IMG/VR virus record: IMGVR_UViG_2531839130_000012
Length of the DNA: 35,037 nucleotides
DNA from: a virus
Taxonomy: Duplodnaviria; Heunggongvirae; Uroviricota; Caudoviricetes
Reading direction: 5' to 3' (one strand)
In this document: one piece after another, positions 1-34,750 of the stretch
Numbering within the stretch: the first letter of the stretch is position 1
Layout: each line of letters begins with the position of its first letter
The notes under the pieces: generated by a model
Seen by the model: only the letters and a program-made list of their open reading frames with translations
Told to the model about the DNA's origin: nothing
The model's database searches: none
Program-made: the position numbers and the translations under genes

Positions 1-1032
1 TCAAAAACTTGCTATTGATGTTGGTAGTGTTGCCAGCGGATTAAACCGTAATGCAGTTTCCAGGTGATCCGGTGCTAGATGTGCGTAACGCATAGTCATT
101 TTTATGTCGTGATGTCCGAGGATTTTTTGCAAAGCAAGGATATTTCCACCCGACATCATAAAATGCGCCGCAAACGTATGGCGCAGAACGTGTGTCAGTT
201 GACCGCGAGGGAGCACGATAGACGTTTTTTCCATCACGGATAAAAATTGAAAATAGCAGTCTGTGAAGAAATTGAACCCATCGAGCGCCATGATCTCTTC
301 GTAAAGCTCTTTACTGATAGGGATGCTTCTGTTTTTCTTCCCCTTCGTTCTGACAAAGGTAATTCGGTATTTGGTCACCTGTGAGCGGGTAAGGTTTATT
401 GCTTCTCGCCAGCGTGCGCCTGTGCTTAAGCATATCTTGACTACCAGTGCCAGAATTGGGTCCTGACGTTTGCAATCATCCAGCAGTTCAACAATCTGCT
501 CATGGGTAAGCCATGCCATCTCTTTTTCTGCGATGGTGAATTTTCGCATGTTCTCCAGTGGGTTTGGATACGACCATTCGCCCAGGCGGGATAGTTCGCT
601 AAAAACACTACTTAGATAGCTTTGCTCCAGGTTAATGGTGACCGGGCTGGCCCCTTTCTTCCATTTCTCGCTGAAGTAGATCTCACCTGTCAGTCGTTTA
701 TCTCGATAATGGGCAAACATTTTAGATGTGAGATCGGTTGCAAGGGGATTGCCCAGAGCGTCAACCATCAGCAGCAATTTGTCATAGACATGCTGCCCAG
801 CAGTCAGAGATTTACCATGTAGTTTGAACCATAGCTCAACCACGTCTTTCAGGGTTCGACGATCTACTGATTCGCCCAGCCAGGGCTTTGCTTCGGTTTC
901 TTCCATCGTGTGACGCTCAAAAGCCAGTGCTTCGCCTTTGGTGGCGAATTGTTTACGCACACGACGCCCACTACGTCCGGCGGGGTAACATTCGCAAAGC
1001 CATTTTCCTGTGGTGAGTTTTCGTACTGCCAT
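1..1032 (-). CDS. int: Tyrosine integrase (P2/186 family)
   Basis: C-terminal catalytic region with HVLRHTFAAHFMM (HxxR box) and MTMRYAHLAP (catalytic Tyr); start at internal MAVRK Met preceded by GGAGGG Shine-Dalgarno on the minus strand; stop codon is bases 1-3. Confidence 0.9.
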   Translation of the reverse strand: MAVRKLTTGKWLCECYPAGRSGRRVRKQFATKGEALAFERHTMEETEAKPWLGESVDRRTLKDVVELWFKLHGKSLTAGQHVYDKLLLMVDALGNPLATDLTSKMFAHYRDKRLTGEIYFSEKWKKGASPVTINLEQSYLSSVFSELSRLGEWSYPNPLENMRKFTIAEKEMAWLTHEQIVELLDDCKRQDPILALVVKICLSTGARWREAINLTRSQVTKYRITFVRTKGKKNRSIPISKELYEEIMALDGFNFFTDCYFQFLSVMEKTSIVLPRGQLTHVLRHTFAAHFMMSGGNILALQKILGHHDIKMTMRYAHLAPDHLETALRFNPLATLPTSIASF

Positions 1033-1218
1033 AAAAAATGCCCTCCAATAGAGAGCATTTTTACTGTATGTATAACCAGTGTCAATGTATGAAATCTTGC
1101 GACCATACATCTCACTGAAGCCATAATGAAGTTGGCTATTTTTTGCTATGTGAGTATGTGACTTTTGCGGTTAGCCTGCGGCTCATTGTTATATTAGGCG
1201 CAGATATAAAAGCAAAAA

Positions 1219-1410
1219 TTATCGCGAGTTTTTAGTACAGATTTTTTTTGATTTACTAATAGTTCCATCATTGCAAACGAACTTTCCATCGGAGGTACAG
1301 TGAGAGACACCTCCCTTTTTCCCAGAACAAGGATAATTTTTAGCATAGGTAGTTAGTGGGTTTAATAACAAAGAGCATGATAAAACCACAAAAAATACCT
1401 TACCAAGCAT
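1219..1410 (-). CDS. Small secreted Cys-rich protein (63 aa; predicted signal peptide, 4 Cys in ~40-aa basic mature part), function unknown
   Basis: ORF directly downstream of cI on the same strand; strong GGGAGGA Shine-Dalgarno 5 nt before the ATG (plus-strand tttcctccc at 1413-1421); hydrophobic N-terminus [16 protein letters not shown]; AT-rich. Confidence 0.4.
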
Positions 1411-1425
1411 AGTTTCCTCCCGGTA

Positions 1426-1995
1426 TTACCTAACGTACTTAATTGTTAAACTTATAATTTTTCCAATTATTTCAACATCTTCTATCTTGCACTCGAAGGA
1501 TCTGTTTCCACCTTCAACGAAGATTCTTCCACCGGGTAAACGAGTAATGTCGCGGATTGTTATTTCGCCATCAATACTTATTACCCATTTACCATCACGT
1601 ATATCATCAAATTCTTTATCACAAATAAATTCAGAATTGTTATCTGTGATGACAAAAGGTTTTTTAAACGTAGAGGGTAGAAATCCCTTATCAAAAATAT
1701 AAAAACCGTCTTCACGCAAGGCACCATCAGATAATACATATTTAGCAACTTCCATCGTATTTGTATTACCTGAAGTTTGCTTTGAACCATGTCCAGTTGT
1801 GAGCCAATTAAGCGAGGTGCCCGTTTCAAGGGCGCACTGGATTACCCATTCTGCTGGGAATGAGTCACGCATGTAGCGTGTAGCGAGTGTACTTTTAGAG
1901 ATTCCTAAATGATCGCACAACGCCTGTCGAGTTTTGAATCCATAAGCTTCTACCATGCGCTCTATAGCGCCTCGTCCGCCTTTCTCCAAATTCAT
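1426..1995 (-). CDS. cI: Phage 186 CI-type immunity repressor
   Basis: About 190 aa; N-terminal HTH region (AYGF...LCDHLGISKSTLATRY) and C-terminal domain resembling 186 CI; divergent from the Apl/cII operon; ATG at 1995 preceded by GGAG (the 1999-2001 GTG is the alternative start). Confidence 0.8.
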   Translation of the reverse strand: MNLEKGGRGAIERMVEAYGFKTRQALCDHLGISKSTLATRYMRDSFPAEWVIQCALETGTSLNWLTTGHGSKQTSGNTNTMEVAKYVLSDGALREDGFYIFDKGFLPSTFKKPFVITDNNSEFICDKEFDDIRDGKWVISIDGEITIRDITRLPGGRIFVEGGNRSFECKIEDVEIIGKIISLTIKYVR

Positions 1996-3925: not shown

Positions 3926-4779
3926 GCACCATCCTGAAATGGGCGGGAAATAAAACCGCCATTATGTCCGAACTGAAAAAACACCTTCCTGCTGGCCCGC
4001 GACTGGTTGAACCTTTCGCGGGTTCCTGTGCTGTGATGATGGAGACGGATTACCCCAGCTATCTGGTTGCGGATATTAATCCTGATTTAATCAACCTCTA
4101 TAAAAAGGTTGCCGCTGATTGTGAATCGTTTATATCTCGCGCCAGAGTTTTATTTGAGATCGCAAACAGGGAGGTGGCTTATTACAACATAAGGCAGGAG
4201 TTTAATTACTCCACTGAAATTACTGATTTCATGAAAGCGGTATATTTCCTGTATCTCAATCGTCACGGTTACCGTGGTTTATGTCGCTATAACAAGAGCG
4301 GGCATTTCAACATTCCCTACGGTAATTATAAAAATCCGTATTTCCCTGAAAAAGAAATTCGCGCATTTGCAGAAAAGGCCCAGCGAGCAACGTTTATCTG
4401 CGCCAGCTTTGATGAAACGCTGGCGATGTTGAAGGCGGGGGATGTGGTGTATTGCGATCCGCCGTATGACGGTACGTTTTCCGGCTATCACACTGACGGC
4501 TTCACTGAAGATGACCAGTATCACCTGGCATCTGTTCTTGAACATCGGTCATCAGAAGGACATCCAGTCATTGTTTCTAACAGTGACACATCCCTGATCC
4601 GTTCGCTGTATCGCAATTTTACTCACCACTACATCAAGGCAAAACGCAGCATCGGTGTGGCAGCTGGCGAGGGTAAATCAGCAACAGAAATCATTGCTGT
4701 TTCCGGGCCGCGCTGCTGGGTGGGATTTGATTATTCGCGTGGCGTGGATAGTTCTGCCGTGTACGGAGTACGTGCATGA
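3922..4779 (+). CDS. dam: DNA N6-adenine methyltransferase, Dam family
   Basis: Motif [10 protein letters not shown] and motif IV DPPY ([10 protein letters not shown]); starts [11 protein letters not shown]; GGAGG Shine-Dalgarno; stop overlaps the gene A start. Confidence 0.85.
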
Positions 4780-7343: not shown

Positions 7344-7532
7344 ATGCAGGACTATTTTTTGGAGTCTTTGAAGCTCCAGCGCATTGATTTTTTTCTTAAG
7401 CTTGTAGCGGCTAGTGAGTGTAGTGATGAAGAGAAGGGGCTGGCTCTGCAGTGGGTTTCTGAATTGACTGATGAACTCATGGCAAAAATCAGAAGCCACG
7501 AATACAACCGCTCAATGGATGTCATCAACTGA
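7344..7532 (+). CDS. Small SOS-regulated protein (62 aa), possible Tum-like antirepressor N-terminal module
   Basis: Strong TAGGAGGA Shine-Dalgarno before ATG 7344; first ORF after the LexA box; same position as the 186 tum operon. Confidence 0.45.
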   Translation: MQDYFLESLKLQRIDFFLKLVAASECSDEEKGLALQWVSELTDELMAKIRSHEYNRSMDVIN

Positions 7533-7542
7533 GGTGACTTTT

Positions 7543-7776
7543 ATGCGCATTGAAATAATGATCGATAAAGAGCAGAAGATTAGCCAGTCTACCCTGGACG
7601 CCCTTGAATCCGAGCTTTACCGCAATCTGCGCCCCCTGTATCCCAAAACGGTAATCCGTATCCGTAAAGGTAGCTCTAACGGTGTGGAACTGACCGGACT
7701 GCAACTGGACGAAGAAAGAAAACAAGTGATGAAAATTATGCAGAAGGTGTGGGAAGACGACAGCTGGCTGCATTGA
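7543..7776 (+). CDS. DinI-family protein
   Basis: MRIEIMIDK...LDALESELYRNL...YP...KQVMKIMQKVWEDDSW aligns along its length with E. coli DinI (MRIEV..., ...WESADDW); GAGG Shine-Dalgarno before ATG 7543. Confidence 0.75.
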   Translation: MRIEIMIDKEQKISQSTLDALESELYRNLRPLYPKTVIRIRKGSSNGVELTGLQLDEERKQVMKIMQKVWEDDSWLH

Positions 7777-7830: not shown

Positions 7831-7863
7831 AGGCGATGTCAATCAGATATCGCCTTGTTTTTT
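7831..7863 (+). terminator. Rho-independent terminator-like hairpin (AGGCGAT / ATCGCCT) followed by TTGTTTTTT
   Basis: Read directly from the sequence downstream of the DinI-like gene. Confidence 0.45.
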
Positions 7864-7889
7864 GTCAAGAAAAGAATAATAGGCTAAAA

Positions 7890-8567
7890 ATGAAAATTAA
7901 TAACGTAGCGTTACCAATATCTCTGGCTGTAATCCTAACTGGTTGCGTGCCACATGCTTCTAACCGAAATATCACTGCTATTGAAGTGGTGAAGCCTGCT
8001 ATTGGGCAAAGTGCTACCGCCTACATGGGCGATCCCATTATCACATCTGCTACTGGATTTAAAACGGACGTACTAGAACTTGGTGCGGCTAATGGTGCAT
8101 TGTCTTCTATCGCTGCTGGTACATATTGCAGTGAGGGGAATGGAATTTACCGCAATTATCATAACCCTCAAGCTGTTGCGTTAAAAAATCTCTATGGGCA
8201 AATCGGTAACTATGTTGATTATGTTAGTTACGATGCTGCAAAAAATGAGATATCACCGCCAAATGGTACTTCTTATACTGCATCAGAAATTTCTATCAAA
8301 CGTGTTCCTGATGGGCTGTGTCGAGTTAGTAACTCATTGGTTAAGACTATCGAATACAATGGAAATGCAGGCGGTGTAATGAAGTTCACCTATCGTGAAT
8401 TTGCAAACGATATGGCTCGTGCAGCATTTACAACAGATTTTTCTGTAGATTCTAAGGGAAGTGACGTTATCGCTTACAAAGGTGCCAAGTTCAAAGTGAA
8501 CAAGGCTGATAACTCGTCTATTTCTTATACAATTATTTCTGGCTTTGACAAGACTGTCACGTTCTAG
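7890..8567 (+). CDS. Lipoprotein of unknown function (lipobox LTGC), cargo gene
   Basis: MKINNVALPISLAVILTGC signal with lipobox Cys; AT-rich; sits between the SOS operon and the cos-like site. Confidence 0.6.
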   Translation: MKINNVALPISLAVILTGCVPHASNRNITAIEVVKPAIGQSATAYMGDPIITSATGFKTDVLELGAANGALSSIAAGTYCSEGNGIYRNYHNPQAVALKNLYGQIGNYVDYVSYDAAKNEISPPNGTSYTASEISIKRVPDGLCRVSNSLVKTIEYNGNAGGVMKFTYREFANDMARAAFTTDFSVDSKGSDVIAYKGAKFKVNKADNSSISYTIISGFDKTVTF

Positions 8568-8671
8568 GTTTCACGCTTGCTGAGTATGTTACGATTTTGC
8601 ACATTCTGCATAAACGCGCATGTCTATGCTGCATGAGATCGCATGATCGTTTGAGGATCTTTTGTGTTAAG

Positions 8672-8698
8672 GCCCGCCAGTTCTGGCGGGCTTTTGCG
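8672..8698 (+). terminator. Rho-independent terminator (GCCCGCCAG ttc TGGCGGGC then TTTTG)
   Basis: Perfect GC-rich stem plus T-run downstream of the lipoprotein gene. Confidence 0.6.
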
Positions 8699-8740
8699 TA
8701 GATCATGCAGGTGCATGAAAACCACTACATAAAGCGGGCA

Positions 8741-8759
8741 GGCGTGGCGGGGATACGAG
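8741..8759. other. Candidate cos (cohesive-end) site, GGCGTGGCGGGGA...
   Basis: 13/13 identity to the start of the 19-nt P2/186 cohesive-end sequence as I recall it (GGCG[A/T]GGCGGGGAAAGCA...); location between gene A and the portal gene matches P2/186. Confidence 0.4.
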
Positions 8760-8840
8760 CGCGCGGATGAGTAATCTATACCATCATCTTGATAAAAGTA
8801 TTAAAAATGGTAAATTTAGCAAGCTACATATTAAAGGAAA

Positions 8841-10238
8841 ATGAAGATGTATGAAGTAATTGATATATCAGCGCAGGAAATTAAGGCGTTGTTAAACACT
8901 ACTGAAGATCATTTCAATGATTTTAAAAGTAAGCAAATAGCGCCTAATAAATTACAAGAAACTTTTGTAGCATTTGCAAATGCTGATGGCGGTAATATTT
9001 ATATTGGCATAGAGGATGCAGCTTCGGGGAGAGAGCGTATATCTGGTTTCAATGAGCCAGAGGAAGCGAATGCTATTATTTCGACCTTATTGGAAAATAC
9101 TAATCCAGCTGTTGAGAATGTTGAGGTGGAATATTTAAGAACACCTTCCAATGGATTGATTTTACATGTGGATATACCAAAAAGCCCCAAAGTTCATTAC
9201 ACGGCCTCTGGCGATTGCTTTATAAGAGCTAACGCGCAAAAATTAAAAATAAAAGGTGAGCGAATTACTCAGCTTTCCTATTCTAAAGGCGCAGAACCTT
9301 ATGAAAAAAAAGCAGTGGATATAGTTGAAGTAGAAGATATTCTTGAAAGTGAATATTATTCTGATTATTTACGTAGAATAGGAACGACTCAGTCACCGAG
9401 AGTTTTTTTAAAAAAACAACGACTGTTAACTAAGAAAGATGGTGAATTTGTCCCGAATGTAGGCTGTGTTTTACTATTTGATGAAGAGCCTCAAGGATGT
9501 TTAGATACTCGATGTGCTGTAAAAGTATATCGGCTTAGAACAACTGAAGCAGAGTACAAACGTGAACAATTACAGGAAGATCCTGTAACGATTGAGGGGC
9601 CACTTGAAGTGGTTATTTTAAATACAATAGCAAAAGTAAAAGAATATGTTGATGGAGCATCATTCAAAGACGGCGAAAATCTAGTAAAACTTAGCTATCC
9701 TGCAGAAGCATTGAAGGAAATATTAGTTAATGCTGTTATTCATAGAGATTACAGCCAAAAGGATGATGTGCACGTAAAAGTTTATGACAACCGGATTGAA
9801 GTTCAAAGTCCAGGCAGATTGCCTGGATACATGACTATTAATAATTTATATGAAGAGCGGTTTTCTCGTAATCCAAATTTAGTGCGTTTGTTGCATAAAC
9901 TTCCCAATCCAGTGAACCATGATATTGGTGAGGGGCTTGATACTGCAAAAAATGAATTGCGTAAGGCCGGGTTGGTAGCCCCGGTATTTGAAGAAAGGGG
10001 CAATAATTTTGTTGTAATAGTTAAGCATCAAACAATAGCCTCAATTGAGGATGTGATTATTAATTATTTTAAAGAAAATCCAACGGGACAGCTCACAAAT
10101 AAGTTGGTTAGACAATTAAGTGGCGAAGATGACCTTCAAAAGGTTAAAAAGGCATTGCAAAAGTTAAGGGAGGAGGGCGTAATAAAACCATTAGATCCTA
10201 ACGCGAATCCTTTCAAATTTAAATATATTAAAGCTTAA
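8841..10238 (+). CDS. Schlafen-like/AlbA_2 DNA-binding domain + HATPase_c_4-like domain + C-terminal winged-helix protein (465 aa); candidate defence/cargo gene
   Basis: N-terminal FNDFKSK...VAFANADGGNIYIGIED (AlbA_2/Schlafen signature); central EALKEILVNAVIHRDYS...VKVYDNRIEVQSPGRLP (HATPase_c_4 signature); C-terminal LTNKLVRQLSGEDDLQKVKKALQKLREEGVI (wHTH-like); strongly AT-rich; flanked by terminators; the start may be ATG 8847 rather than 8841. Confidence 0.7.
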   Translation: MKMYEVIDISAQEIKALLNTTEDHFNDFKSKQIAPNKLQETFVAFANADGGNIYIGIEDAASGRERISGFNEPEEANAIISTLLENTNPAVENVEVEYLRTPSNGLILHVDIPKSPKVHYTASGDCFIRANAQKLKIKGERITQLSYSKGAEPYEKKAVDIVEVEDILESEYYSDYLRRIGTTQSPRVFLKKQRLLTKKDGEFVPNVGCVLLFDEEPQGCLDTRCAVKVYRLRTTEAEYKREQLQEDPVTIEGPLEVVILNTIAKVKEYVDGASFKDGENLVKLSYPAEALKEILVNAVIHRDYSQKDDVHVKVYDNRIEVQSPGRLPGYMTINNLYEERFSRNPNLVRLLHKLPNPVNHDIGEGLDTAKNELRKAGLVAPVFEERGNNFVVIVKHQTIASIEDVIINYFKENPTGQLTNKLVRQLSGEDDLQKVKKALQKLREEGVIKPLDPNANPFKFKYIKA

Positions 10239-10289: not shown

Positions 10290-11318
10290 TTATAGTTTAT
10301 AGTGTTCGAAAGTTATTGCTTCTTCATTGATCCAATAGTTGAGATCTTGTAACTTCTTCTGAAGTGGCATCAGTTCATTCCGAACAAATACCCGGCTGGC
10401 CTTCTCCACATCCCCAAACCCTCCAACATTATTAGGCATAATCCCCATCATTTGCGGCGGCACGCGGTGCGCAGCCATCATGTCGTCGCGGCTGACATTT
10501 TTGATATTCAGAAATTCATCCTTCGCCGCGACTTCTGATAACGGGATGATTTGAAGCCCGTCCTTTTTGCCGTTAGGCGAGTACATAAACAGATTGCGGA
10601 AGTTGCCTGGACCTTTGGCGCTTTTCATTGCGTTGCGGAGGTTGTTCACATCCTCCTGGTTCTGCGCGGCATCGGTCATGTACATGATGAAGCCTGCATG
10701 GCTGCCGTTGATGTAATACTTACGGCGGAACAGCGTGGCGGACTCGTTGAGCAGGGCTGACGGAATGGCAGAAAGATAGCCGGGCAGGCCGTAGATCTCC
10801 TGGTTAATGTCCGGTTCCATCAGATGAAAAATGCTGCCTTTCGTGAACTGATACGGCTGGGTTGTCATACCGTATTGCACAAACCAGTAGGTATCCAGGT
10901 CTAACCCGCGTCGGGTGTATTTTGCCAGAGCAGGCTCAAGGGCGATAACTTCACCGAAGCGGTTCGTGCGTTTCTCCAGGTAGGCGTTACCAAATACCAG
11001 ATAGTCCTGCACAAAACGTGAAAAAGCCTGCTGGCTGAGCAGCGGATGGGGGATGTAGGTACTGGTCAGAATGTTGCATTTCACCGCAATTGGTGAACTG
11101 TGATGCACGGCGGCGCGGAAGGTGCGTGCCAGTCCGTCAAAGCTTACTGGCGGCTCATACCAGCGATCTGTCTGTACGCATTCCACATAGTCCAGTAGTT
11201 CGCGGCGGTCCAGAACAGGAACGGGATCACCGAAGCTGAATGCTTCGGCTGTAGTTTGACTTTTATGCTGGATCTGGTTCGTCGACGCAGCGCGGTTCTT
11301 CTTACTCTTTCCCATCAA
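10290..11318 (-). CDS. Q: Portal protein (P2 gpQ family)
   Basis: 342 aa; first late gene next to the cos region, co-oriented with and overlapping the terminase ATPase gene, as in the P2 PQ operon. Confidence 0.9.
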   Translation of the reverse strand: MMGKSKKNRAASTNQIQHKSQTTAEAFSFGDPVPVLDRRELLDYVECVQTDRWYEPPVSFDGLARTFRAAVHHSSPIAVKCNILTSTYIPHPLLSQQAFSRFVQDYLVFGNAYLEKRTNRFGEVIALEPALAKYTRRGLDLDTYWFVQYGMTTQPYQFTKGSIFHLMEPDINQEIYGLPGYLSAIPSALLNESATLFRRKYYINGSHAGFIMYMTDAAQNQEDVNNLRNAMKSAKGPGNFRNLFMYSPNGKKDGLQIIPLSEVAAKDEFLNIKNVSRDDMMAAHRVPPQMMGIMPNNVGGFGDVEKASRVFVRNELMPLQKKLQDLNYWINEEAITFEHYKL

Positions 11319-32417: not shown

Positions 32418-34103
32418 TTATCCTAATCCTGGCCATACCATGACGATGATTGTCCCTGCCAGCGTCAGCAGGACGTTGGCGATTGCGTAGGTGCCCGCGT
32501 AGCCCAGCGCAGGGATGTTACTGCGAGCTGTATCACTGATGATCTCCATTGCCGGCGCGCAGGTGCGTGCGCCCATCATTGCGCCGAACAACAGTGCGCG
32601 GTTCATTCGCAATACATAAGCACCGAACAAGAAACAGATAACCACGGGCACAAGACTGACAATTAATCCGGCAATCAACATCTGACCGCCAATCGCGCCC
32701 AGGCCGTTATTAATACCGCTACCGGCGCTCAGACCAACGCCTGCCATAAACACCATCAAGCCGAACTCTTTCACCATGCTTAATGCACCTTGCGGAATGT
32801 AACCGAAGGTCGGGTGGTTAGCACGCATAAAGCCCAGCATAATTCCGGCGAATAACAACCCGGCAGCGTTCCCCATGCCGAAACTGAATGTGCTGAACTG
32901 GAAGGTGATCATCCCGATCATCAGCCCAATAACAAAGAAGGCGCAAAATGCCAGCAGGTCAGTGACCTGGCTGTGAATCGAGATAAAGCCGATGCGATCG
33001 GCGATGGTTTTTACGCGACGGGCATCACCGCTGACTTGTAAAACGTCACCTTTGTTAAGCACGACGTTGTCATCTATCGGCATCTCAATCTGGCTACGAA
33101 TGACGCGGTTAAGGAAGCAACCGTGATCGGTCAACTTCAGTTGTGCGAGACGTTTACCTACAGCGTTATGGTTTTTAACGACCACTTCTTCAGTGACGAT
33201 ACGCATGTCGAGAAGGTCACGATCGAAAACTTCTTTACCGTTACGGAAGCTGGGATCGAGTCGGGCATGGGCGTCGGGATAGCCTACCAACGCTATTTCA
33301 TCGCCCATTTGTAGCACGGCATCACCGTCTGGATTTGCCAGAATCCCGTTACGTCGAATACGTTCAATGTAGCAGCCGGTTTGTCGATAAATACCCAGTT
33401 CACGCAGATTTTTGCCGTCGGTCCAGGCCACCAGCTCCGGGCCGACGCGATAGGCGCGGATCACCGGTAAATAAACCTTACGGTTGGCATCAGTGTCCAG
33501 GCCACGTTCGCGGGCGATTTGCTGGGCGCTGGTCTGTAAGTCCTGATGCTGCAATTTCGGCAAGTAACGCGCACCAACAATCAAACTCACCAGACCGATT
33601 AAATAGGTTAAGGCATACCCGAGGCTCAGATTATCCAGTGCCAGTGAGAGCTGCCTGCTTTCCATGCCGGAATGACGCAGTGTATCGCCAGCACCGACCA
33701 GAACCGGTGTCGACGTCATAGAGCCTGCTAACATACCGGCCGTCAGGCCAATATCCCAGCCAAACAGCTTACCTAACCCTAAGGCGATCACCAGCGCACT
33801 GCCAACCATCACCAGTGCTAACATTAGGTAATTTTTCCCATCGCGAAAAAAAATGGAAAAAAAGTTCGGTCCGGCTTCGACCCCGACGCAGAAAATAAAC
33901 AGCATAAAGCCAAGATTAAGCGCATCGGTGTTAATGCTGAAATGTTGTTGGCCTAATAACAGCGATACGACTAAAACGCCAATGGAATTACCCAGTTGGA
34001 TCGAACCAAGTCGTAACTTTCCGAGACATAGCCCAAGCGCGAGGACCACAAATAATAACAGAATGTAATTCCCATTTAACAATTCGGCGACGTTTATATT
34101 CAC
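32418..34103 (-). CDS. ybjL: Putative AAE-family transport protein YbjL (chromosomal)
   Basis: 561-aa polytopic membrane protein with central soluble domains; size, and position next to ybjM and grxA, match E. coli ybjL. Confidence 0.85.
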
Positions 34104-34372
34104 GGAGGCTAACTTCTTGTTTACTAGTAAGCTGTTGAAAGAAATGGTAATTTACGATAATGTTTTTTACCAGAATTCAGGGCGCAGATTCATTCAGCGC
34201 ACCTAAACGATAGTAAAGTAACAATATATTTTACTAGTGTAATCACATTAGGTATCAACGGCTATATGAATTGCGTTGGCCTATATTAGCATGGAATGCG
34301 AAGCGGCTTTATCTTACTGAACGCCACACTGGCGAAAAATGTGTTCGATAGACGCAGTGTCAGGAGGAACGA

Positions 34373-34750
34373 GTGAAACATAAACAACGTTGGGCGGGGG
34401 CAATCTGCTGTTTTGTCCTCTTCATTGTGGTGTGCCTTTTTCTGGCGACGCACATGAAAGGCGCTTTTCGGGCTGCCGGGCATCCTGAAATCGGCTTGCT
34501 ATTTTTCATTCTTCCTGGAGCAGTCGCCAGCTTCTTTTCACAGCGTAGAGAAGTCCTGAAACCTCTGTTTGGCGCAATGCTGGCGGCACCCTGTTCGATG
34601 CTCATTATGCGGCTGTTTTTTTCACCGACGCGCTCATTCTGGCAAGAGCTGGCATGGTTACTAAGCGCGGTGTTCTGGTGTGCGCTGGGGGCACTGTGTT
34701 TCTTATTTATCAGTAGTTTGTTTAAACCACAGCACAGAAAAAATCAGTAA
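34373..34750 (+). CDS. ybjM: Inner membrane protein YbjM (chromosomal)
   Basis: 125-aa hydrophobic protein between ybjL and grxA, as in E. coli. Confidence 0.75.
   Translation: MKHKQRWAGAICCFVLFIVVCLFLATHMKGAFRAAGHPEIGLLFFILPGAVASFFSQRREVLKPLFGAMLAAPCSMLIMRLFFSPTRSFWQELAWLLSAVFWCALGALCFLFISSLFKPQHRKNQ

Follow-up and report, generated by a model that had tools for sequence, protein, structure and literature searches.

RESULTS

A 63-codon gene between the repressor and integrase genes of a 186/P2-like prophage

The stretch of DNA analysed here, IMG/VR virus record IMGVR_UViG_2531839130_000012 (35,037 nucleotides, referred to as the window), is a complete 186/P2-like Escherichia coli prophage that runs from the int stop codon to the host genes ybjL and ybjM. 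On its minus strand the genes follow each other in the order cI (1426-1995), a 63-codon open reading frame (ORF; 1219-1410) and int (1-1032), and it is the ORF between the repressor and the integrase gene that is the subject of this work. A preliminary description, made from the sequence without database searches, had taken it for the gene of a small secreted cysteine-rich peptide and had proposed a search of small-protein databases. Profile searches place it in a known family (NCBIfam NF007463, Pfam PF27300, PHROG 6000): the product is a member of the already annotated YdcA family, which that description had not recognised. The features of the gene and its flanks are as follows.

1219-1410, minus strand: coding sequence (CDS) of the YdcA family, 63 codons plus TAA stop (1219-1221); from the ORF listing, NCBIfam NF007463, PHROG 6000, the Prokaryotic Genome Annotation Pipeline (PGAP) and the ratio of non-synonymous to synonymous substitution rates (dN/dS)
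1342-1410, minus strand: putative signal peptide, codons 1-23, with a predicted signal peptidase I cut after A23; from the hydrophobicity profile and alignments
1222-1341, minus strand: basic mature domain of 40 amino acids (aa) with four cysteines and an isoelectric point (pI) of 9.64; from core conservation and an AlphaFold2 (AF2) model
1415-1421, minus strand: Shine-Dalgarno (SD) sequence GGGAGGA, with a spacer of 4 nucleotides (nt) to the ATG; read from the sequence
1426-1995, minus strand: 186-type cI repressor gene; Pfam Phage_CI_repr (E 3e-33) and Phage_CI_C (E 1e-28), PGAP CDS in strain D7
1-1032, minus strand: int, the gene of a P2-family tyrosine integrase and downstream flank of the cargo slot; Pfam Int_N and Phage_integrase, PGAP CDS

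The ORF starts with ATG, 15 nt downstream of the cI stop codon TAA (1426-1428), and the near-consensus SD sequence that the preliminary description had read in front of it is indeed present. PGAP calls the same CDS (WP_001321204.1) at the same coordinates in strain D7; an identical CDS is found in the B-lineage strain AS19, and the name given by PGAP to the identical copies is 'YdcA family protein'. The product scores 116.1 bits (E 4e-34) against NF007463 (PRK10040.1-2, YdcA family), for which the curated cut-off is 93, and matches PHROG 6000 with E 5e-34. Its close database homologues carry precomputed Pfam PF27300, and many of them are named 'YdcA family protein'. A Pfam match to GULLO2 (E 0.068) was rejected as spurious.

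The protein carries the family core motif with its four cysteines, PCSGxKGGxxxC...FxCxDGxxSxSKxxC. Ten positions (P27, K32, C38, F44, C46, G49, S52, S54, K55 and C58) are invariant in 38 sequences, and at least 90% conservation in the same set is found for C28, S29, G30, K31, G33, G34, V35, H37 and D48. Whether the ORF itself or only the nucleotide sequence is conserved had been left as the deciding question by the preliminary description, and the answer is that the protein is conserved. Compared with the allele of E. coli HS there are 13 substitutions, 11 synonymous and 2 non-synonymous (dS 0.31, dN 0.014, dN/dS ~0.04). Compared with the 70%-identical allele of sequence type 131 (ST131), the mature part shows 18 synonymous and 3 non-synonymous differences. 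A scan of positions 900-2400 against Rfam gave no match, and an RNA element was therefore rejected. The ORF is thus a genuine prophage gene of the YdcA family that evolves under purifying selection. It is also a frequent one: a 401-bp region is present in 632 of 5,426 complete E. coli genomes, and the full int-YdcA-cI arrangement, RefSeq-annotated, in about 590 of them.

Features of a cysteine-rich product with predicted export

The N-terminus resembles a signal peptide, as had been proposed: the n-region has K4, the hydrophobic core comprises residues 5-16 (12 residues, mean Kyte-Doolittle value 2.86), and T-Y-A occupies positions -3 to -1 relative to the predicted cut. The alanine at -1 is invariant in one alignment (A1) and reaches a conservation of at least 90% in another (A2), while the other positions of the leader diverge freely. 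Indeed, in the comparison with the ST131 allele dN amounts to 0.79 in the leader and to 0.034 in the mature part. This combination, a leader that changes rapidly and retains only its hydrophobicity and the Ala at -1 in front of a mature peptide that hardly changes, is typical of exported proteins. A lipoprotein reading of the leader, with VLSC12 as 'lipobox', was rejected, since its sole cysteine (C12) comes too early, after a hydrophobic stretch of 7 residues, and is not conserved, and since the leaders of homologues end in AxA.

The mature part of 40 aa (4.26 kDa) contains nine lysines and arginines against two aspartates and glutamates. Its four cysteines are C28, C38, C46 and C58, the fifth cysteine of the product being C12 in the leader; the basic, four-cysteine mature region had been described correctly beforehand. 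By analogy with established Sec/Dsb biology, we infer that the product would be exported via Sec and cleaved after A23, and that the four conserved cysteines would form two disulfides in the periplasm. The AF2 model of the YdcA domain has a predicted local distance difference test (pLDDT) score of 82-90 in the core. The local AT-richness remarked upon earlier is clear from the GC content, which is 34.9% in the ORF compared with 39.4% in cI and 51.7% in the whole window.

Probable linkage to the cI transcript and a hairpin in front of int

In a consensus scan, no minus-strand terminator was found between cI and the ORF. Considering this, the gap of only 15 nt and the overlap TAATG at the same junction in Haemophilus phage HP2 (see below), co-transcription of the YdcA gene with cI is very likely. 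This operon structure suggests that the gene is transcribed in lysogens from the lysogenic promoter together with cI. The preliminary description had assumed a transcript that spans cI, the ORF and int; its first half holds, whereas the extension into int is doubtful on account of the following elements.

1034-1062, minus strand: hairpin AAAAAUGCUCUCU-AUU-GGAGGGCAUUUUU, 13 base pairs, just 5' of the int ATG; folding free energy (dG) -15.9 kcal/mol, z -5.7
1057-1085, minus strand: sigma-70 promoter-like site TTGACA-17-AAAAAT upstream of int; consensus scan, 10/12 matches, a consensus match only

The 3' arm of the hairpin ends in a U-run, which extends one base beyond the arm, right up to the int ATG, and the int SD sequence (1041-1046) lies inside this arm. 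The int leaders of ST131 strain 4224 and of phage vB_EcoM-813R9 have other stem sequences and adopt the same predicted fold, with dG of -12.2 and -13.3, respectively. It is this conserved, terminator-like and SD-sequestering hairpin with its U-run before the int ATG that makes co-transcription with int doubtful. The consensus terminator scan left the hairpin at 1034-1062 unflagged, perhaps since its A and U tracts pair together. The promoter-like site overlaps the 5' arm of the hairpin with its -10 element and lies within the conserved int module. This arrangement suggests that the transcript of cI and its cargo would either terminate ahead of int or be silenced there at the level of translation, with int being under its own control, as far as can be judged from structure alone.

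A variable cargo slot between cI and int

Is there a gene at this position in related phages? In phage 186, cI and int overlap and no gene lies in between, and in P2 the genes C and int are separated by a gap of 115 nt without a gene, as the preliminary description had stated. The homology of the integrase region of the window to Klebsiella phages stops near position 1090, and relatives that carry the same integrase differ in what they hold between cI and int. The slot contains a 349-aa protein in Klebsiella phage 4LV2017, a 323-aa protein in UPEC_U013, and in vB_EcoM-813R9 a 558-aa protein that is PD-Lambda-1 (L006 4091-5767; PADLOC E 3e-120). In ST131 strain 4224, the YdcA gene follows directly after cI and is itself followed by the gene of a KAP-family NTPase, PDC-S20 (L007 1610-2941; PADLOC E 1e-171). 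The proposed comparison of related prophages thus shows a varying presence, with YdcA or other cargo in the slot.

The linkage to cI recurs outside E. coli. In Yersinia aldovae and Y. alsatica, the YdcA gene lies directly after cI at a distance of 48 nt; the distance downstream of cI is greater in Y. nurmii (214 nt) and Buttiauxella (410 nt). A 60-codon YdcA ORF, absent from the annotation of the records, is also present in Haemophilus phages HP2 and S2, where its start overlaps the cI stop codon as TAATG. HP1 has no YdcA gene and carries four unrelated ORFs instead, though its cI and that of HP2 share 97% identity. In the cI-linked lineages (ST131, Yersinia, Buttiauxella, HP2) the cI proteins are 37-71% identical, compared with 79-94% for the 33-residue YdcA core. 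The gene that follows YdcA in HP2, orf1(S) (L002 3112-3876), encodes a signal peptide and a tRNA_anti-like oligonucleotide/oligosaccharide-binding (OB) fold (Pfam E 3e-13); its predicted product would be a second exported protein of the same lysogenic operon, possibly a nucleic-acid-binding one.

The gene lies on the same strand as and between the repressor and integrase genes, is patchy in relatives (absent from 186, P2 and HP1, present in HP2) and has an atypical GC content. On this sequence context we class it, in agreement with the preliminary description, as a moron, i.e. an accessory gene of the lysogeny operon in P2/186/HP1-family phages. Genes co-transcribed with or adjacent to a repressor gene can serve defence, rexAB of phage lambda being an example. 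The occurrence of PD-Lambda-1, the KAP NTPase, Glo (described below) and others in relatives marks the slot as a hotspot where genes expressed in lysogens, both accessory and defence genes, are found. By analogy, what the window gene would have in common with repressor-linked defence genes is expression in lysogens alongside the repressor. PD-Lambda-1 and PDC-S20 occupy the same slot in sister prophages with the same integrase, but they are large cytoplasmic ATPases or nucleases, whereas the product of the window gene is a putative periplasmic peptide of 4 kDa.

The closest positional counterpart is found in Vibrio phage K139, in which orf2 and glo lie between cI and int. Glo, labelled 'periplasmic protein; involved in phage exclusion' in GenBank and so described in the literature (PMC4870250), is encoded at the same position as the window gene, within the lysogenic operon transcribed from PL in a phage of the P2/HP1 family (PMC4870250). 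It is, however, 137 aa long and has no detectable homology to the window protein beyond the signal peptide; homology between the two was accordingly rejected (hhalign probability 3.9%, signal peptide only).

The YdcA family outside the prophage

E. coli has a core paralogue of the gene. YdcA of strain K-12 (b1419; NF007462; PF27300) is 57% identical to the window protein (E 1e-19) and shares with it a predicted Sec leader ending in Ala, the four cysteines and the core PCSGxKGG(V/I)SHC...GKFVCNDG(T/S)xSxSKKxC. The two differ in context, K-12 ydcA lying between rydC and hokB in the core chromosome, whereas the window gene is prophage-borne, lies in a lysogeny operon and has 35% GC; NCBI keeps them as separate equivalogs, NF007463 for the window type and NF007462 for K-12 YdcA. 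K-12 YdcA has been described as a predicted periplasmic protein of 57 aa and unknown function (PMC11340327), and the family is called uncharacterised (PMC11340327, PMC13541209). Control of ydcA by YdcI and acid, with induction at pH 5, has been reported, as has the sensitivity of an E. coli W ydcA deletion to 3-hydroxypropionate (PMC7642389). Literature searches on WP_001321204, 'YdcA family' and PF27300 returned nothing functional, and the 'ydcA' of papers on the gonococcal island and on Bacillus is an unrelated gene of the same name.

A profile search of 1.84 billion representatives yielded 456 clusters (50% identity) at E<=1e-3, and a species-level genome scan found the YdcA domain in alpha-, beta- and gamma-proteobacteria. 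Twenty Moraxella phages encode homologues in their late regions, and others are found in Acinetobacter phages and plasmids and in Rhizobium plasmids; a scan of viral contigs returned solely near-identical copies of the same prophage and hence no added diversity. A long form of the protein (132-136 aa), with the C-terminal motif PTCAPLYM...HLPICSGNQY, is encoded inside type VI secretion system (T6SS) clusters of Enterobacterales chromosomes (L108, L125 and L137, around 3995-4399). Its neighbours are TssE (GPW_gp25) on one side and, on the other, a 414-aa membrane protein containing a T5orf172/MUG113 domain and then TssA/VasL. A 3-kb contig (L089, JAEWTL010000113.1) of a metagenome-assembled genome assigned to 'Bacillota' carries the cI-YdcA-int segment of this E. 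coli prophage, with a YdcA 98% identical to that of the window; this is most likely a binning contamination.

Fusion partners and a probable relation to Dis2

Clues to the function of the domain come from the proteins in which it is embedded. A signal peptide and a YdcA domain are fused N-terminally to SNase (E 5e-24), to Endonuclease_NS (several proteins, E 1e-24 to 1e-34) and to a phospholipase D (PLD)-like Nuc domain (E 5e-19).

Examples of YdcA-nuclease fusions, from three unrelated secreted families: P0115, P0185, P0167 and P0187; L133 3989-4936

Other proteins contain tandem YdcA domains, in two or three copies (P0073; three in P0065). Nuclease fusions and tandem arrays are the behaviour of a ligand-binding or anchoring module, not of a toxin. 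The domain has a median net charge of +6, and KKGG and SxSK, its invariant Gly/Lys/Ser motifs, would be well suited to ligands that carry phosphate.

A profile search of the sequences in the PDB (hmmsearch) gave a single match, Legionella Dis2 (7MUC chain AN, E 2.3e-4). The same chain was the top match of the modelled domain in Foldseek (probability 0.98, E 0.097, 38% identity); against the viral structures of BFVD, Foldseek found nothing below E 0.9. A Dis2-like fragment (P0229, with P0230 listed alongside) carries PF27300 and matches the NCBIfam YdcA models with E 3e-4. Dis2 consists of two similar lobes pinned by five disulfides and adjoins the outer membrane in the Dot/Icm cap (PMC8486379); it has been said to have no structural relatives and to be Legionella-specific (PMC8486379, PMC12716638). 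Homology of YdcA and Dis2 at the level of the domain is probable, and Dis2 would then be a tandem of two YdcA-like lobes. The window protein is no Dis2 itself: Dis2 of Legionella pneumophila (Lpg0823) has two lobes, ten cysteines and five disulfides, is less basic and is a stoichiometric subunit of a type IV secretion system (T4SS), whereas the mature part encoded in the window is a single lobe with four cysteines and thus lacks this architecture. No T4SS genes were found in the window, in contrast to the Dot/Icm-bearing genome to which Dis2 belongs.

Other features of the window

A second cargo region lies on the plus strand at 7836-10238, flanked by a DinI-like gene (7471-7776) and, on the minus strand, the portal gene (10290-11318). 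It encodes a 243-aa protein without a family match and a 465-aa protein with Schlafen AlbA_2 and HATPase_c_4 domains, which PADLOC links weakly to pAgo/Aga-associated models (E 1e-19); this is likely to be a further defence locus. At its right end (32418-34750) the window consists of host DNA with a ybjL-like Asp-Al_Ex permease gene and ybjM. To the left, beyond int, complete genomes have rcdA, ybjJ and ybjI, and the prophage therefore occupies the rcdA-ybjL interval.

DISCUSSION

Here, we found that the ORF behind cI encodes a prophage member of the YdcA family, an identity that we consider highly probable and that makes the gene, taken by itself, already catalogued and ordinary in kind. What would such a protein do for a lysogen? 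We propose that, being co-transcribed with cI from the lysogenic promoter, it would be produced throughout lysogeny, pass through Sec and lose its leader by a cut after Ala23, and that its basic part of 40 residues would fold in the periplasm with two disulfides from the four conserved cysteines. The domain could then act as a small binding module where the envelope faces the periplasm, with a ligand that is probably a polyanion, such as DNA or phosphate-bearing envelope components, or else an outer-membrane machine. Bound there, it may obstruct incoming phage or other foreign DNA within the periplasm, much like a superinfection-exclusion factor, and thereby complement the immunity conferred by cI, as Glo does in K139. 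What the data show is a real gene of the family that is under purifying selection and recurs right behind cI in a variable slot, and a domain that occurs in fusions; export, cleavage and disulfides, like expression in lysogens, the ligand and the effect on superinfection, are what we infer. Small envelope proteins of phages that block the entry of other phages are known, among them the superinfection-exclusion lipoproteins Cor (phi80/N15) and Llp (T5), which mask FhuA. The window product would resemble them in being a small phage-encoded envelope protein, but differs in that its leader has no fitting lipobox.

Taken as a whole, we give this explanation an even chance. Its more general part, that the product is a periplasmic binding module from which the lysogen benefits, seems to us somewhat the more probable outcome, while the specific hypothesis that it blocks the entry of foreign DNA is possible and, for now, on the doubtful side. 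Several observations weigh against the exclusion role. A location in a defence hotspot is guilt by association only, and the protein itself matched none of the PADLOC-DB 2.0 models at E<=0.01. A 186-type cI gene lies upstream in just 7 of the 80 species-level loci; about 90% of these loci are not beside cI and have varied chromosomal, T6SS or plasmid contexts. The nuclease fusions are equally compatible with envelope anchoring. As to Dis2, the hhalign comparison with YdcA is weak (probability 26%), and deletion of Dis2 leads to only subtle phenotypes (PMC12716638). Published work contains no experiment that connects a member of the YdcA family with phage exclusion or with DNA binding. Finally, a core paralogue is already present in E. 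coli, so that a general envelope role is equally possible.

Such a role would make the prophage gene a factor of envelope physiology or fitness that adds to the dose of core YdcA, for instance in tolerance to acid or organic-acid stress, and benefits the lysogen directly. The 57% identity to K-12 YdcA fits this, as do the mostly chromosomal location of family members, the induction at pH 5 under YdcI and the sensitisation of E. coli W to 3-hydroxypropionate upon ydcA deletion (PMC7642389). The stress phenotypes, however, come from a single study and without a mechanism, the prophage type is kept as an equivalog of its own (NF007463 as opposed to NF007462), and a benefit related to phages is suggested by its recurrence right behind cI, where relatives otherwise hold defence genes; we regard such a role in envelope physiology or fitness as unlikely, though worth serious consideration. 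The probable homology to a subunit of the Dot/Icm outer-membrane cap, together with the long family form between TssE and TssA/VasL in T6SS clusters and the UniRef cluster name 'Conjugal transfer protein', could instead indicate a module that attaches, in the way of Dis2, to machines spanning the envelope, be it a T4SS or a T6SS, thereby modulating conjugation, secretion or contractile-injection traffic. Neither T4SS nor T6SS genes are found in the window, the UniRef name is unverified, the Acinetobacter plasmid copy lies outside any transfer region, and Dis2 itself is described as Legionella-specific and dispensable (PMC12716638), which leaves the docking function quite improbable.

The preliminary description had offered a secreted toxin or bacteriocin-like peptide beside a periplasmic factor, and it is the latter that, judging by the sequence, appears to be the right class. 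An antimicrobial peptide would account for a small, cationic, cysteine-rich and superficially defensin-like product that is borne on a mobile element. Yet the leader is of the Sec type and not of the double-glycine type, so that delivery would be to the periplasm only; the neighbours are cI and int, with no adjacent export or immunity gene; E. coli holds the paralogue ydcA in its core genome; and elsewhere the domain serves as an accessory module fused to nucleases and, in Dis2, probably as the repeat unit of a structural subunit. A toxin is thus very improbable. That the ORF is a product of chance, or part of a conserved non-coding or RNA element, might be thought of a short and AT-rich frame with many chance ORFs of similar size nearby. 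The ratios of synonymous to non-synonymous changes (11:2 against HS, 18:3 in the mature part against ST131), the 456 family clusters across three proteobacterial classes, the strong SD sequence and the negative Rfam scan effectively refute this.

Going beyond the window gene, the YdcA domain could be a widespread but so far unrecognised periplasmic module that binds DNA or its entry route. The free-standing copies behind cI in P2/186/HP1-type prophages, and also those in Moraxella and Acinetobacter phages, would then constitute a new entry-level class of defence, acting by superinfection exclusion or by a block of transformation, while Dis2 would have taken over this fold as its repeat unit, and secreted nucleases as a targeting domain. 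We put this forward as a long shot.

In summary, roughly one in nine complete E. coli genomes, including those of the B-lineage laboratory strain AS19 and the commensal HS, carries in a 186-like prophage a gene that is probably expressed whenever cI is. Should its function prove to be ordinary envelope housekeeping, the finding would be that of a routine moron. New relative to the literature searched are the repeated linkage of cI and YdcA across diverged P2-family phages, the ORF missed in the reference records of HP2 and S2, the YdcA-nuclease fusions and the link between YdcA and Dis2. The last of these suggests that Dis2, published as a Legionella-specific protein without relatives, may belong to a broad family.

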